DNA of 60,296 bases from an uncultured Gammaproteobacteria bacterium. GTDB taxonomy: Bacteria > Patescibacteriota > Patescibacteriia > Magasanikbacterales > GWA2-37-8. The first letter of the stretch is position 1, and each line of letters begins with the position of its first letter. The stretch is from contig CAZUWJ010000002.1 in assembly GCA_964624315.1 (NCBI GenBank), positions 1-60,296 of the forward strand, written 5' to 3'. A model generated the notes under the pieces. The model did no database searches and had not been told where the DNA came from. It saw nothing but the letters and a program-made list of their open reading frames with translations. Of this stretch, positions 1,967-58,704 are shown in pieces. A program made the translations under genes and the position numbers.

Positions 1967-3025
1967 ATGAAATTTAATCCCTCACAACTAACCTTAAAAA
2001 ATAAAACAGTATTTACTGGTTTTTCTCCTACCTGGCAAAAAAATATTTCTTCTGGAGAAGTTGTTTTTACTACTGGTATGACTGGCTATGTAGAAAGTCT
2101 TACTGATCCATCTTATGCTGGGCAGATTTTAACTTTTACCTACCCTCTAATTGGTAACTACGGCGTACCTGATAAAAAATATTGGGAATCAAAAAAAATC
2201 CATGCCCATGGTGTAATAGTGGGTGAAGCTTGTTTAAACTGGAGTCACCAAGCAGGAAAAACTGGCTTACTAGATTGGCTCAAAGAACAAAATATCCCAA
2301 TCATTACTGATGTGGACACCAGGGCTCTCACCAAATTATTACGTGAACATGGTGTGATGCTGGGGGCTATCAATTGTTCTCAAAATAAATTAAAAAAAGA
2401 TTACAAATTTATTGACCCCAACAAAAACAATCTAATTGCCAAAGTATCTATAAATAAGAAAAAAACTTATGGTAAGAGCAATAAAAAAATCTTTGTAATT
2501 GATTGTGGTATGAAAGAAAATATCATGCGCTCACTTTTAAAATTTGATCTGAATATTGAACGCATACCATACAATTATGATTTTACCAATAAAAAATTTG
2601 CTGGTGTTTTTATATCCAATGGACCAGGAGATCCTCTAACAGCAAAAGAAACTGTAAAAATAATCCAAAAAGCCATGAAAGCTAAAAAACCAATTTTTGG
2701 AATTTGTCTTGGTGCGCAAATTATAGCTTTAGCAGCCGGTGCCAAAACCTACAAACTTCCCTATGGACATCGTGGACAAAACCAACCTTGTATTGAAACA
2801 ACGTCCAAACACTGCTATATCACTAGCCAAAACCATGGCTATGCTATAAATGAAAAAACCTTGCCAAAAAATTGGGAAGTAACCTTTAGAAATTTAAATG
2901 ATAATTCTGTTGAAGGTATTACTCACAAATCATTACCTTTTTTTGCAGTTCAATTTCATCCAGAAGCTACTCCAGGACCAACTGACACTGAGTGGCTATT
3001 TAAAAAATTTTATGACTCAATCTAA
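1967..3025 (+). CDS. carA: carbamoyl-phosphate synthase small (glutaminase) subunit
   Basis: 352 aa with the class I amidotransferase motif PIFGICLGAQ and the HGY/HPE catalytic region. Confidence 0.92.
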   Translation: MKFNPSQLTLKNKTVFTGFSPTWQKNISSGEVVFTTGMTGYVESLTDPSYAGQILTFTYPLIGNYGVPDKKYWESKKIHAHGVIVGEACLNWSHQAGKTGLLDWLKEQNIPIITDVDTRALTKLLREHGVMLGAINCSQNKLKKDYKFIDPNKNNLIAKVSINKKKTYGKSNKKIFVIDCGMKENIMRSLLKFDLNIERIPYNYDFTNKKFAGVFISNGPGDPLTAKETVKIIQKAMKAKKPIFGICLGAQIIALAAGAKTYKLPYGHRGQNQPCIETTSKHCYITSQNHGYAINEKTLPKNWEVTFRNLNDNSVEGITHKSLPFFAVQFHPEATPGPTDTEWLFKKFYDSI

Positions 3026-6000
3026 TTTTAAAAAAGTTTTAATATTAGGCTCTGGTGGCCTGCGTATTGGCCAAGCCGGTGAATTTGATTATTCTGGTTC
3101 CCAAGCTATCAAAGCTCTAAAAGAGGAAAATATAAAAACCATTCTTGTTAATCCTAATATAGCCACTGTTCAAACTGATAAAACCATGGCAGATAAACTA
3201 TATCTCCAACCTCTAAATACAGCTACGGTAACAAAAATTATTGAACAAGAAAAACCAGACGGATTATTACTTAGTTTTGGTGGACAAACCGCACTAAATC
3301 TAGGTTTGGAACTACACGAACAAGGAATTTTGAAAAAATACGGAGTTGAAGTTCTTGGCACACCAGTGGCAACTATAAAAATGACAGAGGATAGGAATTT
3401 ATTCAAAAAAGCTTTGAATGAAATAAAAATAAAAACTGCCAAAAGCTTTGCTGTAAATACAGTACCACAAGCTCTAAAAGCTGCAAAAAAAATTGGTTAC
3501 CCTATTATGCTACGCTCTGGTTATTCTCTTGGGGGATTAGGTTCTGGTGTTATTCATTCACAACAAGAACTGGAAGTTAAAGCAGTAGAATCTTTGCACG
3601 GTGCTCCACAAATTCTCATTGAAGAATATCTGGGTGGTTGGAAAGAAATTGAATATGAAGTGGTAAGAGATTGTGACAACAATACCATCACTGTGTGTAA
3701 TATGGAGAACTTTGACCCCATGGGAATTCACACTGGTGAAAGTATTGTTGTAGCCCCATCACAAACTCTTAACAACGAAGAATACCATCTCTTGCGTAAA
3801 ATCGCTATAAAAACAATCCAACATATTGGAATTATCGGTGAGTGTAATATTCAATATGCCCTCAATCCAAAAACTAGCGACTACAGAGTGATTGAAATTA
3901 ACGCCAGACTCTCTCGCTCCAGCGCATTAGCTTCAAAAGCCACTGGCTATCCCTTGGCTTTTATAGCAACAAAACTAGCTCTCGGTAAACGCTTAGACCA
4001 ACTCCAAAATACAGTAACAAAAAAAACCTCAGCTTTTTTTGAACCAGCCCTTGATTATTTAGTAATAAAAATGCCTCGCTGGGATATAGGTAAATTTAAA
4101 GATGCTCAGATGCGTATTGGCTCGGAAATGAAAAGCGTGGGAGAAGTAATGGCTATTGGACGTTCTTTTCCAGAAGCGCTACAAAAAGCTATTCGTTGTC
4201 TCAATATTGGTGCCGATGGATTAGACAATTATCCTTATGAAATTAAAGACTTGAAAGAAGAAACTCAGAATGCTACTTTTAGACGTCTATTTGCTATATA
4301 CCAACTCTTGAAAAAAAATACGAGTGTAGAAGAAATTCATAATCTATCACAAATAGACCCTTGGTTTATTCATCACCTACAATCCATTGTTAAAATAGAA
4401 AAAAATCTTAAAAAAGACAGGCTGAACACAACACTTTTACGACAAGCTAAACAAAATGGATTTTCTGATAAAACCATAGCTAGATTTACCAATAGTACTG
4501 AAAATAAAACTAGAAAAAAACGTCAGCAATACAAAATTACTCCAGTAATAAAACAAATTGATACTCTGTCTGGAGAATTTCCTGCTGAAACCAATTATCT
4601 ATATACCACCTATCACGGTAAATATCATGATATAAAACCTTCACAAAAAAAATCTACCATTGTGATTGGCTCTGGTCCATACTGCATTGGTTCTTCAGTA
4701 GAATTTGATTGGTGTGCAGTCAATACCGCAAGGTCCTTGCGTGAGATGAAAGAGCAAACTATTATTATAAATTCTAATCCGGAAACTGTTTCGACAGATT
4801 ATGACGAATCTGATCGTTTATATTTTGAAGAACTAACAGAAGAACGTATCAAAGATATCGCTGATTTTGAAAATCCTAAAGGTATTATTATTTCAGTAGG
4901 AGGACAAATTGCCAACAATATAGCTCTACCACTCTACAAAGCTGGCTACCCAATTCTTGGTACGAATCCACAAGACATTGACAGAGCTGAAAACAGACAA
5001 ATTTTTTCTGCCTTACTTAATAAATTAAAAATTGACCAACCTATTTGGCAAGAGGTCACAACTTTAAGCAAAGCCAAACAATTTGCCAAAAATATTGGCT
5101 ACCCTATTTTGGTGCGACCTTCCTACGTTTTATCTGGGGCAGCTATGAATGTTGTATATAGCGAACAAGAGCTACAGCAGTATCTAACAGAGGCTGGAAT
5201 TGTTTCGCCAAACCATCCAGTGGTTATGTCACAATTTATTACCAAAGCAAAAGAACTAGAACTAGATGGTGTGGCAAACAATGGAGAAATTATTATAGAA
5301 GCTATTGCAGAGCATCTAGAAAATGCTGGTGTCCATTCTGGTGATGCCACTATTGTTTTACCACCTCAACGATTATATTTAGAAACTATTCGTCGTACCA
5401 AAAAAACTGCTAGAGCAATTGTCAAAGCTTTGAATATTACAGGTCCATTTAATATTCAGTTTATTGCCAAAAATAATGATATAAAAGTTATCGAATGTAA
5501 TTTGCGTGCTTCTCGTTCGTTTCCTTTTGTTTCCAAAGTTACCAATTATAACTTTATTGATATTGCTACAAAAATTCTTTTAAAAAAACACTTACCCAAA
5601 ATATACAAAACTCTTGACCTAGATTATGTTGGTGTCAAAACATCTCAATTCTCTTATAATCGTATTAAGGGTGCCAATCCCGTGGCTCATGTAGAAATGG
5701 CTTCTACAGGTGAAGTGGCTTGTCTTGGTGACAATTATCTACAGGCTTTTTTTGCTTCCTGGTTTGCCACCGAACAATCTATAAAAGGAAAGAAAATTTT
5801 AATTAGTATTGGTGGAGATTATAACAAAAATAAACTTTTTGAGGGTATCCGAAAATTAGAAGAAAAAGGTTGGAAAATATATACTACAAACGGTACGCAT
5901 GACTTCCTGGCCAAACATGGTGTAGCTTCCAATTTTTTACACAAACTAAGCGCTAACCAAGAACCAAGTATTTCCAGTTCTATCCTTAAGCAAGAAGTTA

Positions 6001-6310: not shown

Positions 6311-7234
6311 ATGCAAACAAACTTTAAAGGAAAAAGTATCATTTCAATTAATGATATATCTAAAACAGAGATACTACATATACTAAAACACGCTGAAAGT
6401 TTAAAGAAAAAACAACAACCAAATTTATTAAATGGACATATTATGGGCTCTTGTTTTTTTGAACCATCCACTCGCACTAGACTTTCTTTTGAAACTGCCA
6501 TGGAGAGGCTCGGCGGTCAAGTCATGGGATTTTCTGATGGCAAAGTAACCTCTGCCAAAAAAGGAGAAACCATTTATGACACAATGAAGATTATTGGACA
6601 ATACGCTGATGTGATTGCCATGCGCCACCCAATAGAAGGAGCTGCTCGCAGAGCTAGTGAAGCTACTGACAAACCAATTTTAAATGGTGGTGACGGAACC
6701 AATCAACACCCCACCCAAACTTTGCTTGATTTATTTACTATCAAAGAATGTCAAAAAAAATTAGCAGGTCTAAACATTGCTTTGGTTGGAGATCTAAAAT
6801 ATGGTCGCACCACTCATTCTCTAGCTCAAGCCCTAACACACTTTAATGCTCGTCTTTACTTTGTAGCACCAGATAGCTTACAAATGCCAAATTATATTTG
6901 CGAAGAATTAAAAGAAAAAGGTATAAAATTTTCCAAACATGAAAAAATAGAAAACATCATAAATAAAGTAGATATTTTGTATATGACTCGCATCCAAGCT
7001 GAGAGATTCTCTGACCCGATGGATTATGAGAGAGTAAAAAATGCTTTTATTTTAACAGAAGATATGTTGGGTAAAGTAAAACCAAACATGAAAATAATGC
7101 ATCCCCTACCTCGTGTTAACGAGATAGATACAAAAGTAGATAAAACAAAACATGCTTACTACTTTGAACAAGCTGAAAACGGTTTGTATGTTAGGCAAGC
7201 TCTCTTAGGCTTGATTTTGGGAAAACTTAAATAA
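6311..7234 (+). CDS. pyrB: aspartate carbamoyltransferase catalytic subunit
   Basis: 307 aa with the STRTR motif (FFEPSTRTRLSFE), HPTQ and the HPLPR motif. Confidence 0.93.
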   Translation: MQTNFKGKSIISINDISKTEILHILKHAESLKKKQQPNLLNGHIMGSCFFEPSTRTRLSFETAMERLGGQVMGFSDGKVTSAKKGETIYDTMKIIGQYADVIAMRHPIEGAARRASEATDKPILNGGDGTNQHPTQTLLDLFTIKECQKKLAGLNIALVGDLKYGRTTHSLAQALTHFNARLYFVAPDSLQMPNYICEELKEKGIKFSKHEKIENIINKVDILYMTRIQAERFSDPMDYERVKNAFILTEDMLGKVKPNMKIMHPLPRVNEIDTKVDKTKHAYYFEQAENGLYVRQALLGLILGKLK

Positions 7235-7248
7235 ATAAAAATAAAACT

Positions 7249-7713
7249 ATGACTCAAGATAAAAAATTATTAGTCAGTGCTATCAAAAACGGTACTGTCA
7301 TAGACCACATAGAAGCTGGTAATGCTTTAAAAATAATTCGTCTACTAAACTTACCCGCGCACAAAAAAATAGTGACTGTTGGATTAAATTTGCCAAGTCG
7401 TGTAATGAAACATAAAGATATTATAAAAGTAGAAGAAAGAGAAATAACTGAAGAAGAAATGAATCAAATCGCGATACTCGCCCCCAAAGCTTCTATTAAT
7501 ATCATTTGTGATTTTGAAATAATTAAAAAATTCAACGCAAAATTGCCAAAACAAATAGAACATATTCTAGTTTGTCCTAACCCAGACTGTATTACCAACC
7601 AAGAAAGAATGGACAGCCTTTTCCATGTTATAAAAAATGGAACCATAAAATTAAAATGTCATTATTGTGAAAAAATATTTAGTCAAGAAGAAATAAAAAA
7701 CTACAATACTTAA
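7249..7713 (+). CDS. pyrI: aspartate carbamoyltransferase regulatory subunit
   Basis: 154 aa with N-terminal VSAIKNGTVIDHI and a C-terminal zinc domain (CPNPDCIT...CHYC). Confidence 0.9.
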   Translation: MTQDKKLLVSAIKNGTVIDHIEAGNALKIIRLLNLPAHKKIVTVGLNLPSRVMKHKDIIKVEEREITEEEMNQIAILAPKASINIICDFEIIKKFNAKLPKQIEHILVCPNPDCITNQERMDSLFHVIKNGTIKLKCHYCEKIFSQEEIKNYNT

Positions 7714-16143: not shown

Positions 16144-16258
16144 TGTCATCCTGAGCGCCTGTCTGTCAGCAGGCAAGGAACATTGTCATCCTGAGGTATC
16201 GAAGGATCTAACAACGTATTTAAGATTCTTCTCCGCCACCCGGCGGATCAGCATGACA
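16144..16258. repeat. cluster of three modular TGTCATCCTGA repeat units
   Basis: Units start at 16144 (+) and 16184 (+, TGTCATCCTGAGGTATCGAAGGATCT). An inverted unit at 16221-16258 reads on the minus strand as TGTCATGCTGATCCGCCGGGTGGCGGAGAAGAATCT. Confidence 0.85.
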
Positions 16259-17081: not shown

Positions 17082-17618
17082 CTACTTATTATACCTGCTT
17101 ATCTCATACATCGCAACGCCCGCAGCGACAGAAACATTCAAACTTTCTTTTTTGCCTTGCATTGGAATCTCTATATGAGTATCACACAAATCTAATAATT
17201 TTTTATCAACTCCTCTAACTTCATTACCCAACACCAAAGCTAGCGGAAATTTTGGTTTCCACTTTGTAATATCAACGCTTTTTTCTGTCTGCTCCAATGC
17301 TACAATATTAAAACCTTGTTTTTTCAATTTTTTGAGCAAACGCCCTGTTTGTTTCTTTTGCTCCCAAGGAATCCATGTTTCTGCTCCTAGAGAGACTTTG
17401 TCTAACTGAGGGTGAGGAGGAGTAACCGTATATCCACAAATATATATTTTATCTACCCCAAAAGCGTCCCCCGTTCTAAACATCGCCCCAACATTATGCC
17501 CCGAACGAACAGAAGGTATCACCAAAACAAATTTTTCTTTGCTAATTACTTCACTGTCATCCTGATCCGCCGGGTGGCGGAGAAAAATCTTATTTTTTTC
17601 TTTTTTCATAATTTTCAT
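17082..17618 (-). CDS. SpoU/TrmH-family RNA 2'-O-methyltransferase
   Basis: Motifs NVGAMFRTGDAFG, LVLGNEVRGV and IPMQG..ESLNVSVAAGVAMYE. The first ~25 codons include a repeat unit, so the true start may be further downstream. Confidence 0.85.
   Translation of the reverse strand: MKIMKKEKNKIFLRHPADQDDSEVISKEKFVLVIPSVRSGHNVGAMFRTGDAFGVDKIYICGYTVTPPHPQLDKVSLGAETWIPWEQKKQTGRLLKKLKKQGFNIVALEQTEKSVDITKWKPKFPLALVLGNEVRGVDKKLLDLCDTHIEIPMQGKKESLNVSVAAGVAMYEISRYNK
17555..17590 (+). repeat. TGTCATCCTGA repeat unit (type B) inside the 5' end of the trmH-like ORF
   Basis: TGTCATCCTGATCCGCCGGGTGGCGGAGAAAAATCT is near-identical to the units at 16221-16258 (inverted) and 47661-47696. Confidence 0.85.
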
Positions 17619-18515: not shown

Positions 18516-18857
18516 ATGCGTCTAAATAGATACATATACAATTTATCTAATCTAGCGAGAAAAATGGGCTATAAATTCAACGAAGCCAATGATAAGCTTG
18601 TGATCAAAATGAAAAAAGAAATTGATACAATTGGCAGTGTAGAATTTAAAATTGAACAATATCCAGATGGATCTTGGACTGCTGAATCTACAAATGTTGA
18701 TGGCATTATTACAGGTGGTACTAGCACTCAAAATATTTCTTCTAGTATAAAAGATGCTGTTTTTACTTATTTTGAAATTCCTTCTTACCTCTGCAGTGAT
18801 ACACTTTTACGAGGAAACAACGAGCCTGTCACAATAAAACAAAACGTTTATGCCTAG
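18516..18857 (+). CDS. hicB: HicB-like (UPF0150) antitoxin
   Basis: The pattern EQYPDGSWTAESTNVDGIITGGTS...IKDAVFTYFE fits the HicB N-domain. The start may be an internal Met (e.g. 18609). Overlaps the next ORF by 8 nt. Confidence 0.5.
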   Translation: MRLNRYIYNLSNLARKMGYKFNEANDKLVIKMKKEIDTIGSVEFKIEQYPDGSWTAESTNVDGIITGGTSTQNISSSIKDAVFTYFEIPSYLCSDTLLRGNNEPVTIKQNVYA

Positions 18858-19089
18858 TAGAAGCTTTTCTGATATTACACAATCTCAATGGATTAAGGCA
18901 TGTCACAAGCTAGACCTAGTTGTAGAATCAAAACATGGCAAAGGAAGCCATGTTTTAGTTAAACATCCAAAAACTGAACACAAGTACACTATTCAAAAAA
19001 GTCTTCACAAATTTATCAACATGAAAATCTTCAAAAAAATGCTAGAATGGAGTTTTGAAGAGGAACAAATTTGGGATGCACTAAATTAA
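18850..19089 (+). CDS. hicA: HicA-like mRNA interferase toxin
   Basis: 79 aa with the KGSHVLVKHP....TIQKS motif typical of HicA/YcfA. Confidence 0.55.
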   Translation: MPSRSFSDITQSQWIKACHKLDLVVESKHGKGSHVLVKHPKTEHKYTIQKSLHKFINMKIFKKMLEWSFEEEQIWDALN

Positions 19090-19160
19090 ATTTATTGAGA
19101 TAATTGGTGATTGTCGAATTTGCCCCCCGATTGAACGAACGACAAAAAACAAAATAACCT

Positions 19161-19712
19161 ATGATAATAGTAATCGCCGGGCCATCTGGCTCTGGCAAAA
19201 CAACTCTCGCAAAAAAAATTGCAAAACAACTAAAAATACCAGTCATTCATAAAGACGACATCAAAGAAACTTTGTACGACGTGCTAGGTTGTGATAATTT
19301 AAAAACATCAAGAGATTATGACGAGGCTAGTTATAAAATATTTTATAATTTTGCCAAAGAACAAATATCAAATGGTAATGACATAATCCTAGAAAGTAAT
19401 TTTAAACCACAATTTGACGAAAAAATATTTAAAAAATTTAAAGAAACATACAACATTAATAGTATACAAATCAGATGTATAACTAATTTAGATATCGCGG
19501 TTGAAAGATTTAAAAAAAGAATACTTATAGATAGACACCCTGGACACAACGACCATCTATTAACAGACACCAATTTAAGAAAAGGCATGGAGGACGAATC
19601 ATTGCCACTTGAAATTAATTGCCCTATAATAGAAGTCAATACTAATGACTTTACAACGATTAACTATAAAGAAATTTTTGATAAAATTAAAAAATATGTC
19701 AAAATAGTTTAA
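19161..19712 (+). CDS. P-loop NTPase / AAA_33-type kinase
   Basis: 183 aa with Walker A at the N-terminus (IVIAGPSGSGKTTLAKK). Confidence 0.65.
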   Translation: MIIVIAGPSGSGKTTLAKKIAKQLKIPVIHKDDIKETLYDVLGCDNLKTSRDYDEASYKIFYNFAKEQISNGNDIILESNFKPQFDEKIFKKFKETYNINSIQIRCITNLDIAVERFKKRILIDRHPGHNDHLLTDTNLRKGMEDESLPLEINCPIIEVNTNDFTTINYKEIFDKIKKYVKIV

Positions 19713-19750
19713 CCCCAAATTACAAAAAGAGATAAGAAAAATTAATAATA

Positions 19751-19776
19751 AAATACCGGTAATTACCGGTATTTTA
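19751..19776 (+). terminator. intrinsic terminator
   Basis: AAATACCGGT-AATT-ACCGGTATTT followed by a T-rich tail. Confidence 0.65.
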
Positions 19777-19800
19777 TTTATAAATCTCTAACTTGTTGAT

Positions 19801-19829
19801 TTGCCTAAAACTACAGCAATTGTTATACT
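19801..19829 (+). promoter_or_regulatory. sigma70-like promoter of the small membrane-peptide gene
   Basis: TTGCCT (19801-19806), 17-nt spacer, TATACT (19824-19829). Confidence 0.55.
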
Positions 19830-19854
19830 AAAGTAATAAAAAACTCGACAATCT

Positions 19855-20088
19855 AACACAAGATAATATTAGAGGGAAGAAAGTAAGGAGGCTCCAGTGA
19901 AGATATTAAACGATTTTATATCAACTGCAACACAGATGATAAACGACCTTATTTCAATTAGCTACTTAGTTGAAGCTTTGATTGGAATAGCAATCGCCAT
20001 GGCTTTTATAGGAGTAATCTGGGGGAAAATACGTAAAAAAATGAAAACATAATTTACCTCTTCCCTCCCTCTAATATTATCTTGTGTT
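19855..20088 (+). repeat. 23-nt perfect inverted repeat enclosing a small ORF
   Basis: AACACAAGATAATATTAGAGGGA (19855-19877) is the exact reverse complement of 20066-20088. Confidence 0.9.
19897..20052 (+). CDS. 51-aa single-TM peptide (type I toxin-like candidate)
   Basis: GTG start 5 nt after AAGGAGG (19885-19891). Product: VKILNDFISTATQMINDLISISYLVEALIGIAIAMAFIGVIWGKIRKKMKT. Below the ORF-track size cutoff. Confidence 0.5.
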   Translation: MKILNDFISTATQMINDLISISYLVEALIGIAIAMAFIGVIWGKIRKKMKT

Positions 20089-20102: not shown

Positions 20103-20453
20103 ATGAATGAACTTTACAAAAAACCACAACCTAAACACGATTGGGCAAAAGTAGAGTGGCCATCTGTAGATCATAATGATAATAACGGACAGTTAAACTG
20201 GACTGATCAGATGTTTGGCGTTATCGATGCTGTGCACCAAAATAAATCAGAAGAGGTTCTCCCCCACATACCTGAAAAATTATTAAGGGCAATGATTTTT
20301 AATTATGCTCATGAAATTGATGGTGATTGGGTAGTAGGGCACGGAGATGCTTTTATCAAAGAATTTGGACGTAGAGGAATCCCTAAAGCAGAATTGATTT
20401 CAATTTTACCTGATTATATCCAAGAAGAATTTATTGAAAAATACGAAAACTAA
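20103..20453 (+). CDS. hypothetical protein
   Basis: 116-aa ORF with no recognisable motif. Confidence 0.5.
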   Translation: MNELYKKPQPKHDWAKVEWPSVDHNDNNGQLNWTDQMFGVIDAVHQNKSEEVLPHIPEKLLRAMIFNYAHEIDGDWVVGHGDAFIKEFGRRGIPKAELISILPDYIQEEFIEKYEN

Positions 20454-20515: not shown

Positions 20516-20830
20516 ATGGCTACCATAGAATTCCTTAGACAATTTCGCATCGGTGGATATGCTATTTTTGATTTCGTGGCTTCGTTTGTGGTTATATATT
20601 TATTAGCCCCGCTACTCTCCAAACTTTTTTTAAAAATAAAATTACAAATACCCAAAAAAAGTTGGGTATTCTTAACTTTACCAATTGGTATTTTAACTCA
20701 CCTATTAGTCGGTAGCATTACTCCTATGACTAAAAACTTTATAGATTTAAATGGTCACTATATTTTAAAATTAGTAATGTTAGCACTTATAATTTTTGGT
20801 ATAAAAGATATAAGGGTAGTTAAAAAATAA
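20516..20830 (+). CDS. hypothetical membrane protein
   Basis: 104 aa with 3 predicted hydrophobic helices. Confidence 0.5.
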   Translation: MATIEFLRQFRIGGYAIFDFVASFVVIYLLAPLLSKLFLKIKLQIPKKSWVFLTLPIGILTHLLVGSITPMTKNFIDLNGHYILKLVMLALIIFGIKDIRVVKK

Positions 20831-20831
20831 C

Positions 20832-22079
20832 ATGAATAAAAATTATAACTTAGCCGTAATAGGCGGAGGCCCGGCTGGAATGATGGCTGGTGGACACGCT
20901 GGAGAACTCGGTTCTCAGGTTGTTTTGTTAGAAAAAAATTCTCGTCTAGGTTTAAAATTACTCATTACTGGTAAAGGCAGGTGTAATATTACTAATGCAG
21001 AGGACGATTTAAAAAAACTAATCCAAGTTTATGGATCAAACGGAAACTTTTTACATTCTGCTTTTAATAAATTTAATAACATTGATACCATAGATTTTTT
21101 TGAATCTCATGGACTGCCAACAAAAGTAGAGCGTGGTAACAGAGTCTTCCCTGTCTCTGATCATTCAGCCGATGTTTTAGGAATATTAAAAAAATATTTA
21201 AATAAAAACAAAGTTGAGATACGATTAAATAGTCCAGTCAAAAAGATAATGCTAAATAAAAATAAAATAGAAAAAATTATATTAGAAAATAATGAAGAAA
21301 TTGTAGCTGATAATTATTTAATCTCAACTGGGGGGAAATCATATCCTACCACTGGCTCAACTGGGGATGCTTATAAATGGTTAGAAAAAATGGGTCACAC
21401 TATCGTCAGCCCTCAGCCTGCTTTGACCCCCATACTAACGAAAGAAAAATTAGTTAAAAAATTAGAAGGGCTAAGTTTAAAAAATGTAGAAATAAGTTTG
21501 TGGAACACAAAAAAACTAGCTTCCTATTTTGGTGAAGCCTTATTTACTGGGAACGGTCTAAGCGGACCAATAGTATTAAACCTAAGTAAAAATATTTTAA
21601 AATACAAACAGAATGGTTTAAAAATAAAAATAGATTTTAAACCAGCGCTAGACTACCCTACTCTAGATAAAAGGATACAAAAAGATTTTGAAGAACAAAA
21701 AAACAAACAATTTAAAAATAGTTTAGATAAATTATTACCAAAAAAACTTATTCCAGTTATAATAGGCTTGTCAGGTATCAAAGAAAATAAAAAAATAAAC
21801 GAAATTACAAAAGAAGAAAGAAAAAAATTAATAAAACTTTTAAAAGAATTTGAATTAACTTTTTTAGAATTAGAAGGTTGGAATAAAGCCATCATAACTA
21901 CAGGCGGAGTAAGCACAAAGGAGATTGATCCTAAAACTTGTAAATCAAAAATAATAAACAACCTATACCTTGCCGGAGAGATTCTAGACATTGACGGACC
22001 AACTGGCGGATATAATCTGCAGATAGCCTGGAGCACAGGTTATCTAGTGGGAGAAGCAATAAAAGAAACTACAGTTTAA
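20832..22079 (+). CDS. HI0933/BaiN-type NAD(P)/FAD-dependent oxidoreductase
   Basis: 415 aa with VIGGGPAGMMAG and LLITGKGRCNITN signatures. Confidence 0.8.
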   Translation: MNKNYNLAVIGGGPAGMMAGGHAGELGSQVVLLEKNSRLGLKLLITGKGRCNITNAEDDLKKLIQVYGSNGNFLHSAFNKFNNIDTIDFFESHGLPTKVERGNRVFPVSDHSADVLGILKKYLNKNKVEIRLNSPVKKIMLNKNKIEKIILENNEEIVADNYLISTGGKSYPTTGSTGDAYKWLEKMGHTIVSPQPALTPILTKEKLVKKLEGLSLKNVEISLWNTKKLASYFGEALFTGNGLSGPIVLNLSKNILKYKQNGLKIKIDFKPALDYPTLDKRIQKDFEEQKNKQFKNSLDKLLPKKLIPVIIGLSGIKENKKINEITKEERKKLIKLLKEFELTFLELEGWNKAIITTGGVSTKEIDPKTCKSKIINNLYLAGEILDIDGPTGGYNLQIAWSTGYLVGEAIKETTV

Positions 22080-42144: not shown

Positions 42145-43071
42145 TTATTGCAATAACCATTTTATACTCTTTTTATAAACTTGCAAAACAAACCAACTCC
42201 ATTTATTTTTTCTTCCCTCGTCTGCTTGATTTAAAGCATTAAAATATTTTTGTCTATTTTGATATAAAAACAAAATAGGTGGATAATTATAATCAAATAA
42301 TATCCAATCAAAAAGCAATCTACCGACTCTCCCATTGCCGTCTTCAAACGGATGAATAATCTCAAATCTTTGATGAAAATCCGCAGCTAAATTTAAAGGA
42401 TGCAAATTCTTTTTTTTGGAATCTTTATACCAATCTAATAAAATTTTCATTTCAAATCTAACTTTTCCTGGCTCTGTAGTAGATTTATTATTTACAATTA
42501 TTTCTTTTTTCTTATATCCTACATTTATCCCCAAACCATTAACTAACAACTTATGTAAATTAATTATTTGATGTTGATTTAATTTAAATTTTTTACTTCT
42601 TATCAGATCAAATGCCTTTATAGAGTTTCTTACTTCTTTTATTTCTCTTTTTTCAATCGTCTTTTTTATATATTCTTTTTTAATAATTGAATTAACCTCT
42701 TTTGGACTCAGTTTACTACCCTCAATAGCGTTTGATTCAAAAATAAACTGGACAGCGTATCGTGTCCATAGCCTCGTCTTTTCAAAATTAGATAATTCTA
42801 AAATTTTATATTTAAAATCTATTCTTAAATTTTCTATCTTTTCCAATTGTTCTACACTAAATATTTCGCTAACATAAAACATTTTACTTAAATTTTCTTT
42901 TATCAACCTCTTTTCTTTTTTAGACAAATCTAAATAATATTGACTCAAATTTTTAGGTATAATTTTACCTAAATAAACCTGTATTTTTTCTGTTTTTTTA
43001 TTTATTCTTAATTGCTCATTTAAATAGAAATATGGCTTACCTTGAATAAATTTCTTATATATTTTAGGCAT
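42145..43071 (-). CDS. Fic/DOC family protein (class II, N-terminal inhibitory motif)
   Basis: Fic motif [12 protein letters not shown], and SNAIEG matching [ST]xxxE[GN]. Confidence 0.85.
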
Positions 43072-47628: not shown

Positions 47629-47724
47629 GTAAAATAATTTATAATTTTCAATTTTTAAACTGTCATCCTGATCCGCCAGGTGGTGAAGAAAAATCTAGAT
47701 TCTTCGATTCCTCAGAATGACAAT
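47629..47724. mobile_element. 96-bp insertion carrying a paired TGTCATCCTGA element, bracketed by a 22-bp direct duplication
   Basis: AAATTTTATTTTCTTTGCCATA occurs at 47607-47628 and again at 47725-47746. Units at 47661-47696 (+) and 47697-47721 (inverted). Confidence 0.6.
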
Positions 47725-51524: not shown

Positions 51525-52139
51525 GGCTAGTTTTGTACTGTTACTTGCATCTAAAATAATTTTTTCTACCCTCTCCCCTTTCTTTTTATTTACTTTTTTT
51601 AATTTATTCAAATATTTTTTTAATATTTTTTTATCTAAATTATCTAAATTCATCTCTTCCCAATCAACATCAGCATATCCATTCAAAGATAAATAAACTA
51701 AGTCAATTACTGCCTTTTCAGGTTTAGCTATCAAAACGTTATCTTTTATTTCATATCCCCACCACAAAGACTCACTAATATGTTGATAAATAATCATTCT
51801 TCCATCTATATCAATTTTTCTAGCCCGATTTAAACTAACTAAAGTTAAGTTAGAAGGTTGTTGGCTTAAAACACCACTAATTGCCAAAACATATTCTAAA
51901 GATAAATAACTAGGCGAATAAATTTCACAAGATAACTGTTCATAATCAACCTTATTTATATTCATTGAATATAAACCATTTCCAATCTTCTGTAATTCTT
52001 CGTTTTTAACCATTCTTGACAACTTTACTCGCAAACTATTTTCTTTTAAATCACTCAATTTTAAAATATCAGAATAATATAGATATCCTTTATTAATTTT
52101 TTCTATTTTTTTTATTAATTTTTTCATATAACTGTTCAA
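51522..52139 (-). CDS. AbiEi-like wHTH antitoxin
   Basis: 205 aa with the N-terminal pattern YLYYSDILKL...LSRMVKNEELQKIGNGLYS, typical of AbiEi_4. Confidence 0.6.
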   Translation of the reverse strand: MNSYMKKLIKKIEKINKGYLYYSDILKLSDLKENSLRVKLSRMVKNEELQKIGNGLYSMNINKVDYEQLSCEIYSPSYLSLEYVLAISGVLSQQPSNLTLVSLNRARKIDIDGRMIIYQHISESLWWGYEIKDNVLIAKPEKAVIDLVYLSLNGYADVDWEEMNLDNLDKKILKKYLNKLKKVNKKKGERVEKIILDASNSTKLA

Positions 52140-52794
52140 TTATTTTCCAATGATTTTTAGGTAGAAATTTTTGCATATCATTTACAAACAACCGTCTTGG
52201 ATAATCTGGTGTTTCAATAGGAATCTCAAACTGTTGACGTAAAGCACTATCAATAAACCACAAATCAAAAATGTCTCTTGATTTTTTTCTATTTTTTATG
52301 GCCTCTAATTTCAATTCTTTTAGATCCTTCAGCGAAGGAACTAGAAACAAAGGTTTAAAAACAGAAACTGGACTTTGAATTAATAATAATTCTGGTTTAA
52401 AATTAGGTTTGCGAGCTGGTTTATGAATTTCAATTTTTATAGAAAACGGATGTTTTAATTTACTATCTTTAATATTTATCAGAGCAAATATTGTTTGTCT
52501 TTTATCTTTAATATCAGCTAATTTCCAATTATCTTTTTGTGATATTAAATTTTGAACAAAAATTTTAAAATTATCAAATTTTATTTTACCCATCGCTAAA
52601 AAATCAAGGTCTTCAAAAAAACGAGGAGAGTTATAAGCTAAACGCATAGCTGTTCCACCATAAAAAACCAACTTTAAACTTAGCTTATCCCGTGATAATT
52701 CTTGCAAAATATCCATCTCTGCTTCCTCGCGTAAAATATGATCGCGGGCAATCTTTAATTCTTTTATAAATTGATTTAATTGTTCTTCGGTCAT
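52093..52794 (-). CDS. AbiEii/AbiGii-family nucleotidyltransferase toxin
   Basis: FYGGTAMRLAYNSPRFFEDLDF and RKKSRDIFDLWF match the DUF1814 signatures. Confidence 0.7.
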   Translation of the reverse strand: MTEEQLNQFIKELKIARDHILREEAEMDILQELSRDKLSLKLVFYGGTAMRLAYNSPRFFEDLDFLAMGKIKFDNFKIFVQNLISQKDNWKLADIKDKRQTIFALINIKDSKLKHPFSIKIEIHKPARKPNFKPELLLIQSPVSVFKPLFLVPSLKDLKELKLEAIKNRKKSRDIFDLWFIDSALRQQFEIPIETPDYPRRLFVNDMQKFLPKNHWKIIEQLYEKINKKNRKN

Positions 52795-57272: not shown

Positions 57273-57328
57273 TATACTTTTTCCAAATTTTTTAGTCAAA
57301 AAAAGTAAGAATTAATTCTTACTTTTTT
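57273..57328. repeat. 56-bp direct repeat, copy A (contains a terminator hairpin)
   Basis: TATACTTTTTCCAAATTTTTTAGTCAAAAAAAGTAAGAATTAATTCTTACTTTTTT is 55/56 identical to 58649-58704. Confidence 0.9.
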
Positions 57329-58648: not shown

Positions 58649-58704
58649 TATACATTTTCCAAATTTTTTAGTCAAAAAAAGTAAGAATTAATTCTTACTT
58701 TTTT
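58649..58704. repeat. 56-bp direct repeat, copy B
   Basis: Differs from copy A at a single position (A vs T at the sixth base). Confidence 0.9.

Follow-up and report, generated by a model that had tools for sequence, protein, structure and literature searches.

Why should a short open reading frame (ORF) be enclosed by two long, perfectly complementary repeats, and do these repeats act on its messenger RNA or do they record an event in the DNA? The question is raised by positions 19,801 to 20,088 of a 60,296-nt stretch of DNA (contig CAZUWJ010000002.1), which at its full length we call the window. The window is AT-rich (GC content ~33%), and its closest database relatives are annotated as members of the Patescibacteria/Parcubacteria group. 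Here a 51-codon ORF, preceded by a promoter and a Shine–Dalgarno (SD) sequence, lies between the 23-nt arms of an inverted repeat (IR). We favor the hypothesis that the IR bounds an accessory mini-cistron encoding a small membrane peptide and that the arms clamp the two ends of its mRNA, probably for processing or stability and not as a translational lock; we put the probability of this reading at roughly 0.4. The mini-cistron is apparently lineage-specific and present in a single copy.

An initial annotation, made from the sequence alone, had proposed a type I toxin-like locus whose full-length mRNA folds back on itself. The promoter, the arms, the SD, the ORF and the pyrimidine tract that it named were all located, and with their neighbors they are arranged as follows.

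19747..19778, both strands: bidirectional terminator, a perfect palindrome with a 14-pair stem and T-runs on both strands.
19801..19829, plus strand: promoter P1, TTGCCT (19801-06), a 17-nt spacer and TATACT (19824-29), with TGnTATACT as an extended -10.
19855..19877 (perfect), with a degenerate extension to 19883, plus strand: left arm, AACACAAGATAATATTAGAGGGA.
19885..19891, plus strand: Shine–Dalgarno sequence AAGGAGG, 5 nt upstream of the GTG start.
19897..20052, plus strand: 51-codon ORF with a GTG start; the peptide contains LIGIAIAMAFIGVIWG and KIRKKMKT.
19942-19913, minus strand: weak antisense promoter-like site, TTATCA-18-TAAAAT, 9/12 consensus positions.
20057..20071, plus strand: pyrimidine tract; the part outside the perfect arm (20057..20065), a possible weak anti-SD, is CCTCTTCCC and forms the inner extension of the right arm.
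20066..20088, plus strand: right arm, which matches the reverse complement of the left arm exactly.
20103..20453, plus strand: gene for an orphan 116-aa all-helical protein, starting 15 nt past the right arm.
20516..22079, plus strand: conserved operon of a 104-aa membrane protein gene and a HI0933-like flavoprotein gene.

The IR is far beyond chance and is a real feature. It is perfect over 23 nt, and a weak inward extension brings it to 29 nt at 93%; past that point the inner purine and pyrimidine flanks have no significant complementarity, so there is no longer IR. The whole element spans 234 bp, of which 188 bp lie between the arms. In random sequences generated from the window with a second-order Markov model, our chance baseline for IRs, only 0.03 perfect IRs of at least 17 nt spaced by 60-800 nt are expected per window, and a match to the arm within 3 mismatches occurred in none of 100 shuffles. 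Among 55 genes, the 51-codon ORF is the only one with complementary 5' and 3' ends: it scores 23, whereas non-matching gene pairs average 8.6 and reach 20 at most. The bracketing of genes by their 5' and 3' ends as a genome-wide pattern is absent from the remainder of the window. An independent, k-mer-based Logan assembly (L001) contains a contig that is identical and unbroken through both arms, and the IR is therefore not an assembly artefact.

Several features suggest that the 51-codon ORF is a gene. Its codon usage has a log-likelihood of 0.27 bit/codon, within the range of most real small genes of the window (0.14-0.64) and above 96% of 151 spurious ORFs of 40-80 aa; the remaining five frames of the same DNA all score negatively. 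The genome is nearly devoid of SD sequences, its genes beginning with ATG after A/T-rich leaders, and the peptide gene has the only start-proximal SD among ~54 genes in the window: AAGGAGG occurs four times across both window strands, and only the copy at 19885-19891 sits 5 nt from a start codon. Elsewhere in this otherwise SD-poor window, 39732 has a weak AAAGGAG. A locus from a related genome, L002, has one accessory gene led by AAGGAGG, for a lipoprotein (7222-7709), which indicates that SD use in this lineage seems rare but possible. The peptide itself has a transmembrane (TM) segment at residues 24-42, the 19-residue hydrophobic maximum (Kyte-Doolittle 2.38), flanked by an N-terminal region of net charge -2 and a C-terminal tail of +5, and AlphaFold2 models it as one continuous helix from residue 2 to 50 (pLDDT 90.7). 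Upstream, the spacer of P1 carries a TG one base ahead of the -10 element, and P1 fits the TTGnnn-17-(TG)TATAAT style found in front of many window genes; its transcription start is predicted near 19836. The promoter search as a whole returned 17 promoter-like sites per 2 kb versus 10.9 by chance. Judged by its host-like codons, its unique SD, its TM helix with a positive-inside charge pattern and P1, the ORF is probably a real gene.

The opposite view is that the ORF is untranslated and that the repeat is a non-coding feature, for example a pair of sites bound by proteins, or what an inverted duplication left behind. The ORF is indeed an absolute orphan, its GTG start and SD are atypical of a genome that uses ATG and lacks SDs, and both arms include the palindrome TAATATTA. 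However, chance would have to supply a 51-codon ORF in 30%-GC DNA along with a perfect SD spaced 5 nt from its start, host-like codon usage that ranks among the top 4% for spurious ORFs, a TM segment, a positive-inside charge distribution and a confidently predicted helix. We give a non-coding origin little credence.

What, then, would the arms do to an RNA that contains them? The end-to-end fold anticipated by the initial annotation is predicted with considerable excess stability: the 260-nt RNA has a minimum free energy (MFE) of -68.6 kcal/mol, compared with -42.2 ± 4.5 for shuffled sequences (z = -5.9), and the arms are paired in silico in both the MFE and the centroid structures. The arm duplex alone accounts for -35.7 kcal/mol, and the 188-nt interior folds at the level of its shuffles (z = -0.58; minus strand -0.65). 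Thus, all of the excess stability stems from the arms.

The same annotation had held that this fold buries the ribosome-binding site (RBS), and here the calculations do not bear it out. The RBS (19883-19902) can be opened for 5.5 kcal/mol in the full transcript, and the figure is 5.8 once the right arm is removed, 5.7 once the left arm is removed and 6.4 for a nascent fragment. Such a cost is ordinary for the genome, given that the median across 47 ordinary window genes is 3.5 kcal/mol and 17% of them require at least 5.5. The main pairing partner of the SD is 20015-20020, a stretch of the ORF, and this holds equally after deletion of the right arm. As for the proposed anti-SD, the CCTCC motif is present at 20064-68, but it overlaps the right arm and is thus largely committed to arm pairing and unavailable to the SD; forcing the SD onto CCTCC costs 8.5 kcal/mol because the motif belongs to the right arm. 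Forcing it onto 20057-62 gives a structure 2.4 kcal/mol above the MFE, which is not the preferred fold. In the thermodynamic model, the clamp is present but has no bearing on whether the RBS is masked. The perfect left arm leaves 19 nt free ahead of the start codon, and 13 nt separate the stop from the right arm; at such distances, by standard ribosome footprint sizes, initiation and termination could both take place with the clamp closed. Because the duplex leaves the SD unmasked, its likeliest role at the level of RNA is that of an end clamp or of a processing site of the RNase III type. There is precedent for the latter in Correia elements, for which RNase III cutting of transcribed terminal inverted repeat (TIR) hairpins is documented (PMC10969869).

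The terminator at 19747-19778 ends the kinase-like gene (183 aa) that lies upstream and sets the locus apart from it. Downstream, there is no terminator-like site between the end of the ORF (20052) and the next start (20103), which follows the ORF by 50 nt, and the 51-codon ORF and the 116-aa gene are probably co-transcribed; the HI0933-like flavoprotein gene ends at a palindromic terminator. The right arm also holds a weak promoter-like -10 (TTTACC-16-TATTAT, 20053-20080). In a 415-nt model transcript the arms are still paired and the RBS of the 116-aa gene opens for 0.7 kcal/mol; scrambling of the left arm gives 0.9-1.2 and deletion of the cassette 0.8. This RBS is open in every context modelled.

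These results also bear on whether the locus is a genuine type I toxin-antitoxin system of the hok/Sok or aapA/IsoA kind, in which a fold-back lock is released by 3' trimming and the toxin is neutralized by a cis-antisense RNA. The anatomy does resemble that class. The locus has a promoter of its own, an SD, 5'/3' pairing and a small, basic-tailed TM peptide, traits by which toxin loci with long-distance interactions (LDIs) are searched for (PMC8594479, PMC6733600), and to this extent the initial annotation was apt. With its 51 aa the peptide also stays below the 60-aa mark for toxins of this class. The fold in which the SD pairs with the putative anti-SD at 20057-62 is just 2.4 kcal/mol from the optimum, and the locus shares its islet with HicA-like and zeta-like genes. 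Furthermore, the minus-strand promoter-like site at 19942-19913 and the terminator at 19778-19747 could yield a hypothetical antisense RNA of ~150 nt (a coordinate estimate) that would cover the start codon, the SD and the left arm. We do not find this antisense unit convincing, since its promoter is one weak 9/12 match and such matches are common in AT-rich DNA. Nor does burial of the RBS by fold-back hold in the thermodynamic model, as removal of either arm leaves the opening cost unchanged and the interior has chance-level structure. To our knowledge, the LDIs of known toxin mRNAs are shorter and less perfect than a 23-29-bp clamp, and a perfect duplex of this length would itself be a substrate for a double-strand RNase. 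The locus thus fails three type I features, namely masking of the SD by the 3' end, a terminator of its own ahead of the next gene, and homology to a known family, for there is no match to a type I toxin family in Pfam or NCBIfam or to an antitoxin in Rfam. A type I system is unproven and, in our assessment, distinctly unlikely, and any toxicity of the peptide would be a further supposition.

Based on these analyses, we propose the following for the accessory mini-cistron with clamped mRNA ends. P1 would transcribe the SD-led ORF, the product of which would be a single-helix membrane peptide with its acidic N-terminus outside and its basic tail inside, and transcription most likely runs on into the orphan 116-aa gene and the 104-aa/HI0933 operon. 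In the RNA, the terminal IRs would form a duplex of 23-29 bp (about -36 kcal/mol) that folds the whole cistron into a self-contained loop, with the peptide's RBS and stop codon just inside and the RBS of the downstream gene open outside. The duplex may either clamp the ends or serve as a processing site for a double-strand RNase of the RNase III type; processing would set the stability of the peptide mRNA and uncouple it from the downstream operon.

Four considerations weigh against this proposal. First, the arms have 23 nt of Watson-Crick identity without a single G-U pair, which points to an origin at the level of DNA by insertion, inversion or inverted duplication, because long-standing selection on RNA would tolerate some wobble. 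Second, RNase III is not encoded in the 60-kb window. Third, the peptide, the 116-aa protein and the arms are without homologs, and hence there is neither covariation nor conservation to appeal to. Finally, the thermodynamic model leaves out kinetics and the sterics of a closed loop, and the clamp may have some effect on translation.

The absence of homologs is extensive. We searched proteins with a word index of 5.8 billion sequences and with HMMER against 1.84 billion representatives. The word-index search returned only the peptide itself, which also has no match in Pfam, NCBIfam, PADLOC or PHROG and matches no known toxin family. The sole other HMMER match, a eukaryote-like protein with 18 SEA-domain matches, was rejected, because one 26-bit chance motif (TQMINDL), present 11 times, inflates its E-value. 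For the 116-aa protein there is no homolog, no family and no sequence match in the PDB, and its AlphaFold2 model (pLDDT 70) has no fold match. The locus has no match in Rfam even at permissive thresholds and none by BLAST in phage and plasmid collections, and exact-protein look-ups found no strain variants except L001. The initial annotation had looked to homologous loci with covarying arms as a check on the fold; there are no homologs in either protein set. Matches to 20-mers of the arms in viral and metagenome contigs were rejected as chance, being single arms within unrelated coding regions, where they encode KIILEG. An inovirus major coat protein was likewise rejected: the peptide has no PHROG match, no relative on viral contigs and no fold match in BFVD, and there are no phage or inovirus genes near the locus. 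We also considered integron attC sites. The left junction fits RYYYAAC, but the right one is GTTTAAA and not GTTRRRY, and attC sites do not flank cassettes as inverted pairs.

Comparison with related genomes shows that the locus lies in accessory DNA. In the closest relative (loci L013-L018, 93% identity in HI0933), the downstream RuvC-YebC-RpoC-RpoB synteny is kept and a divergent PAS-domain gene stands upstream in place of the cassette. In another relative (L019, 83% identity in HI0933), the 104-aa gene (85% identical at the protein level) and the HI0933 gene have their own terminator and promoter ahead, and the sequence becomes homologous to the window right at the start codon of the 104-aa gene (20516). 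Relatives at 71-74% HI0933 identity also differ upstream, and the cassette is absent from relatives throughout the range of 71-93%. Since homology with the relatives stops at the 104-aa start, P1, the cassette and the 116-aa gene are all accessory DNA.

The immediate neighbors of the locus are a HicA-like/HicB-like pair and an AAA_33/zeta-like kinase gene. These belong to a scattered set of toxin-antitoxin or defence-type genes in the window (18516-19712, 42145-43071 and 52093-52794) that also includes a Fic/DOC protein and an AbiEii nucleotidyltransferase toxin. The support for the HicB-like/HicA-like pair is a weak PHROG 'toxin' match, and the zeta-toxin-like P-loop kinase also matches the PADLOC VakA profile (1e-7).

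The accessory and variable setting also speaks for another origin, in which a miniature inverted-repeat transposable element (MITE)-like element would have landed in the leader that joins P1 to the 116-aa gene; the element, or what is left of it, would then show RNA pairing as a by-product. The initial annotation had mentioned a small TIR-bounded mobile cassette as its alternative, and the perfect TIRs that it requires are certainly there: 234 bp with 23-bp perfect TIRs fits the size class of these elements (PMC10969869), falls within the 50-500 bp of the MITE criterion, and comes with arms that are perfectly identical and have no wobble pairs. Removal of 19855-20088 would leave 39 nt between the -10 of P1 and the ATG with which the 116-aa gene starts, as is typical of leaders here, and the downstream RBS is equally open with the folded cassette in place and in the cassette-deleted transcript. 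Mobile sequences that carry small ORFs have been described (Delihas 2007, as cited in PMC10969869). On the other hand, there is no second copy of an arm in the 60-kb window, and the scans of viral and metagenome contigs gave chance matches in coding regions only; the flanks (...CAATCT|AACAC and GTGTT|TAAAAA) contain no flush direct repeat and hence no target-site duplication; and the window ORFs that were scanned included no transposase. An ORF with host-like codons and a unique SD takes up nearly all of the interior, which would be unusual for a MITE. We regard this origin as unproven and unlikely, though deserving of some weight.

The variable region of L002 that is equivalent to ours (74% HI0933 identity) adds a further point in favor of an insertion-like origin, in that it has significant IRs around two accessory genes, non-homologous to the window arms. 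At the L002 locus, three perfect IRs of at least 17 nt are observed where 0.02 are expected, and five at a threshold of at least 16 nt, whereas bracketing IRs occur neither in ~110 kb from other relatives nor in the rest of our window. These IRs hint at a recurrent DNA-level process at the upstream hotspot. The two accessory genes lie just upstream of the HI0933-like gene of L002 (1543-3290), each inside concentric IRs. One encodes a 248-aa orphan (1648-2394), whose interrupted IR of ~150 nt (106/151 positions identical) includes perfect blocks of 22 and 16 nt and reaches into the coding sequence at both ends. The other is an HD-domain gene (2569-3270) with bracketing IRs of 17-18 nt and an intragenic IR of 30 nt. 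L002 (CAZKKV010000018.1), whose HI0933-like gene is 74% identical to that of the window, was deposited as 'uncultured Gammaproteobacteria bacterium', a label that is probably wrong, since its nearest named relatives are all Patescibacteria/Parcubacteria.

Recombination at the level of DNA could also act on the repeats in place. In an inverton, the 23-bp repeats would serve as sites of site-specific inversion, and flipping of the 188-bp segment between them would switch the peptide gene on or off relative to a fixed P1. The length of the IR and of the interior matches the typical size class, as more than 75% of invertons measure less than 300 bases (PMC11602134), and recombination would maintain the perfect identity of the arms. 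Both inner flanks are purine-rich and are followed by an inward start codon; on the minus strand, GGGAAGAGGTAAATT-ATG opens a 14-codon ORF. However, the credible promoter, P1, lies outside the segment, which holds only the 9/12 minus-strand match, and neither a serine nor a tyrosine recombinase was found among the window ORFs scanned. The orientation is the same in two assemblies, and the Logan contig runs unbroken across both arms. An inverton is thus unproven, and we consider the odds to be poor.

If the peptide is made and the clamp functions as our favored reading of a clamped mini-cistron proposes, the locus would be a compact example of mRNA ends tied around a whole cistron, and the Patescibacteria, in which post-transcriptional control and small proteins are almost wholly undescribed, would gain a rare SD-using gene. 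Should it prove to be an insertion or an inversion switch, it would mark a hotspot for accessory DNA upstream of a conserved operon. Under a more ambitious interpretation, the Candidate Phyla Radiation (CPR) would have here its first type I-like toxin module, of a design unlike that of known ones, with a perfect 23-bp clamp in place of SD masking to gate expression through a double-strand RNase, arms doubling as the TIRs of a mobile cassette, and the only SD-dependent gene in an SD-independent background; our literature search found no paper linking type I toxins with the CPR, and we hold this combination to be very improbable. A single orphan locus is a candidate for experiment and a curiosity, not a discovery.

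The window also contains a multi-copy family of short GC-rich repeats, unrelated to the cassette arms. Its core is TCAGGATGACA / TGTCATCCTGA, after which a CCGCCxGGTGGCGGAG hairpin or GGxxCGAAGGATC often comes, and its copies are at 16144, 16184, 16221-16258, 17555-17592, 31302, 31340, 31436, 47645-47676 and 50344. A 16-nt query from this family, GCGGATCAGGATGACA, has 7 matches within 3 mismatches where 0.09 would be expected. The annotated 5' end of a TrmH-like ORF (17082-17618) encloses one of the copies, and the start codon of that ORF has therefore probably been mis-set. In addition, two identical 30-nt self-complementary, terminator-like palindromes, AAAAAAGTAAGAATTAATTCTTACTTTTTT, occur at 57299-57328 and 58675-58704, with 1346 nt between them.

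Among known systems, hok/Sok of Escherichia coli plasmid R1 and aapA/IsoA of Helicobacter pylori are like the locus in their promoter, SD, small TM peptide and 5'/3' pairing. In these systems, however, a 3' anti-SD masks the SD, whereas the arms of our locus leave RBS accessibility unaltered; metastable hairpins stop co-transcriptional translation; and the mRNA ends at a terminator and is opposed by a cis-antisense RNA, whereas the locus has neither a terminator nor a supported antisense gene. The locus further differs in its perfect 23-29-bp stem, its lack of sequence homology and its Patescibacterium host. The peptide can also be compared with Fst/Ldr-like toxins and with the coat proteins of the Pf3/M13 type, all of which are single helices of ~45-50 aa, hydrophobic in the core and ending in a basic tail at the C-terminus; the Pf3/M13-type major coat proteins share its acidic N-terminus as well. 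This likeness is architectural only, as there is no sequence or profile match, no viral fold match and no inovirus gene nearby.

At the level of DNA, Correia/NEMIS and other bacterial MITEs resemble the locus as short elements with ~25-bp perfect TIRs inserted in a leader, with a transcribed TIR hairpin that RNase III can cut and with -10-like hexamers in the arms. MITEs are multi-copy, generate target-site duplications and are normally geneless, whereas the locus is apparently single-copy, has no duplication and contains a coding-like ORF. Invertons of the Bacteroides type, which are invertible promoters that depend on Mpi or tyrosine recombinases, share with it IRs of ~20-25 bp that flank ~190 bp in front of an operon. 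They differ in that the promoter of our locus lies outside the segment, no recombinase is encoded nearby, and a single orientation is seen in two assemblies.

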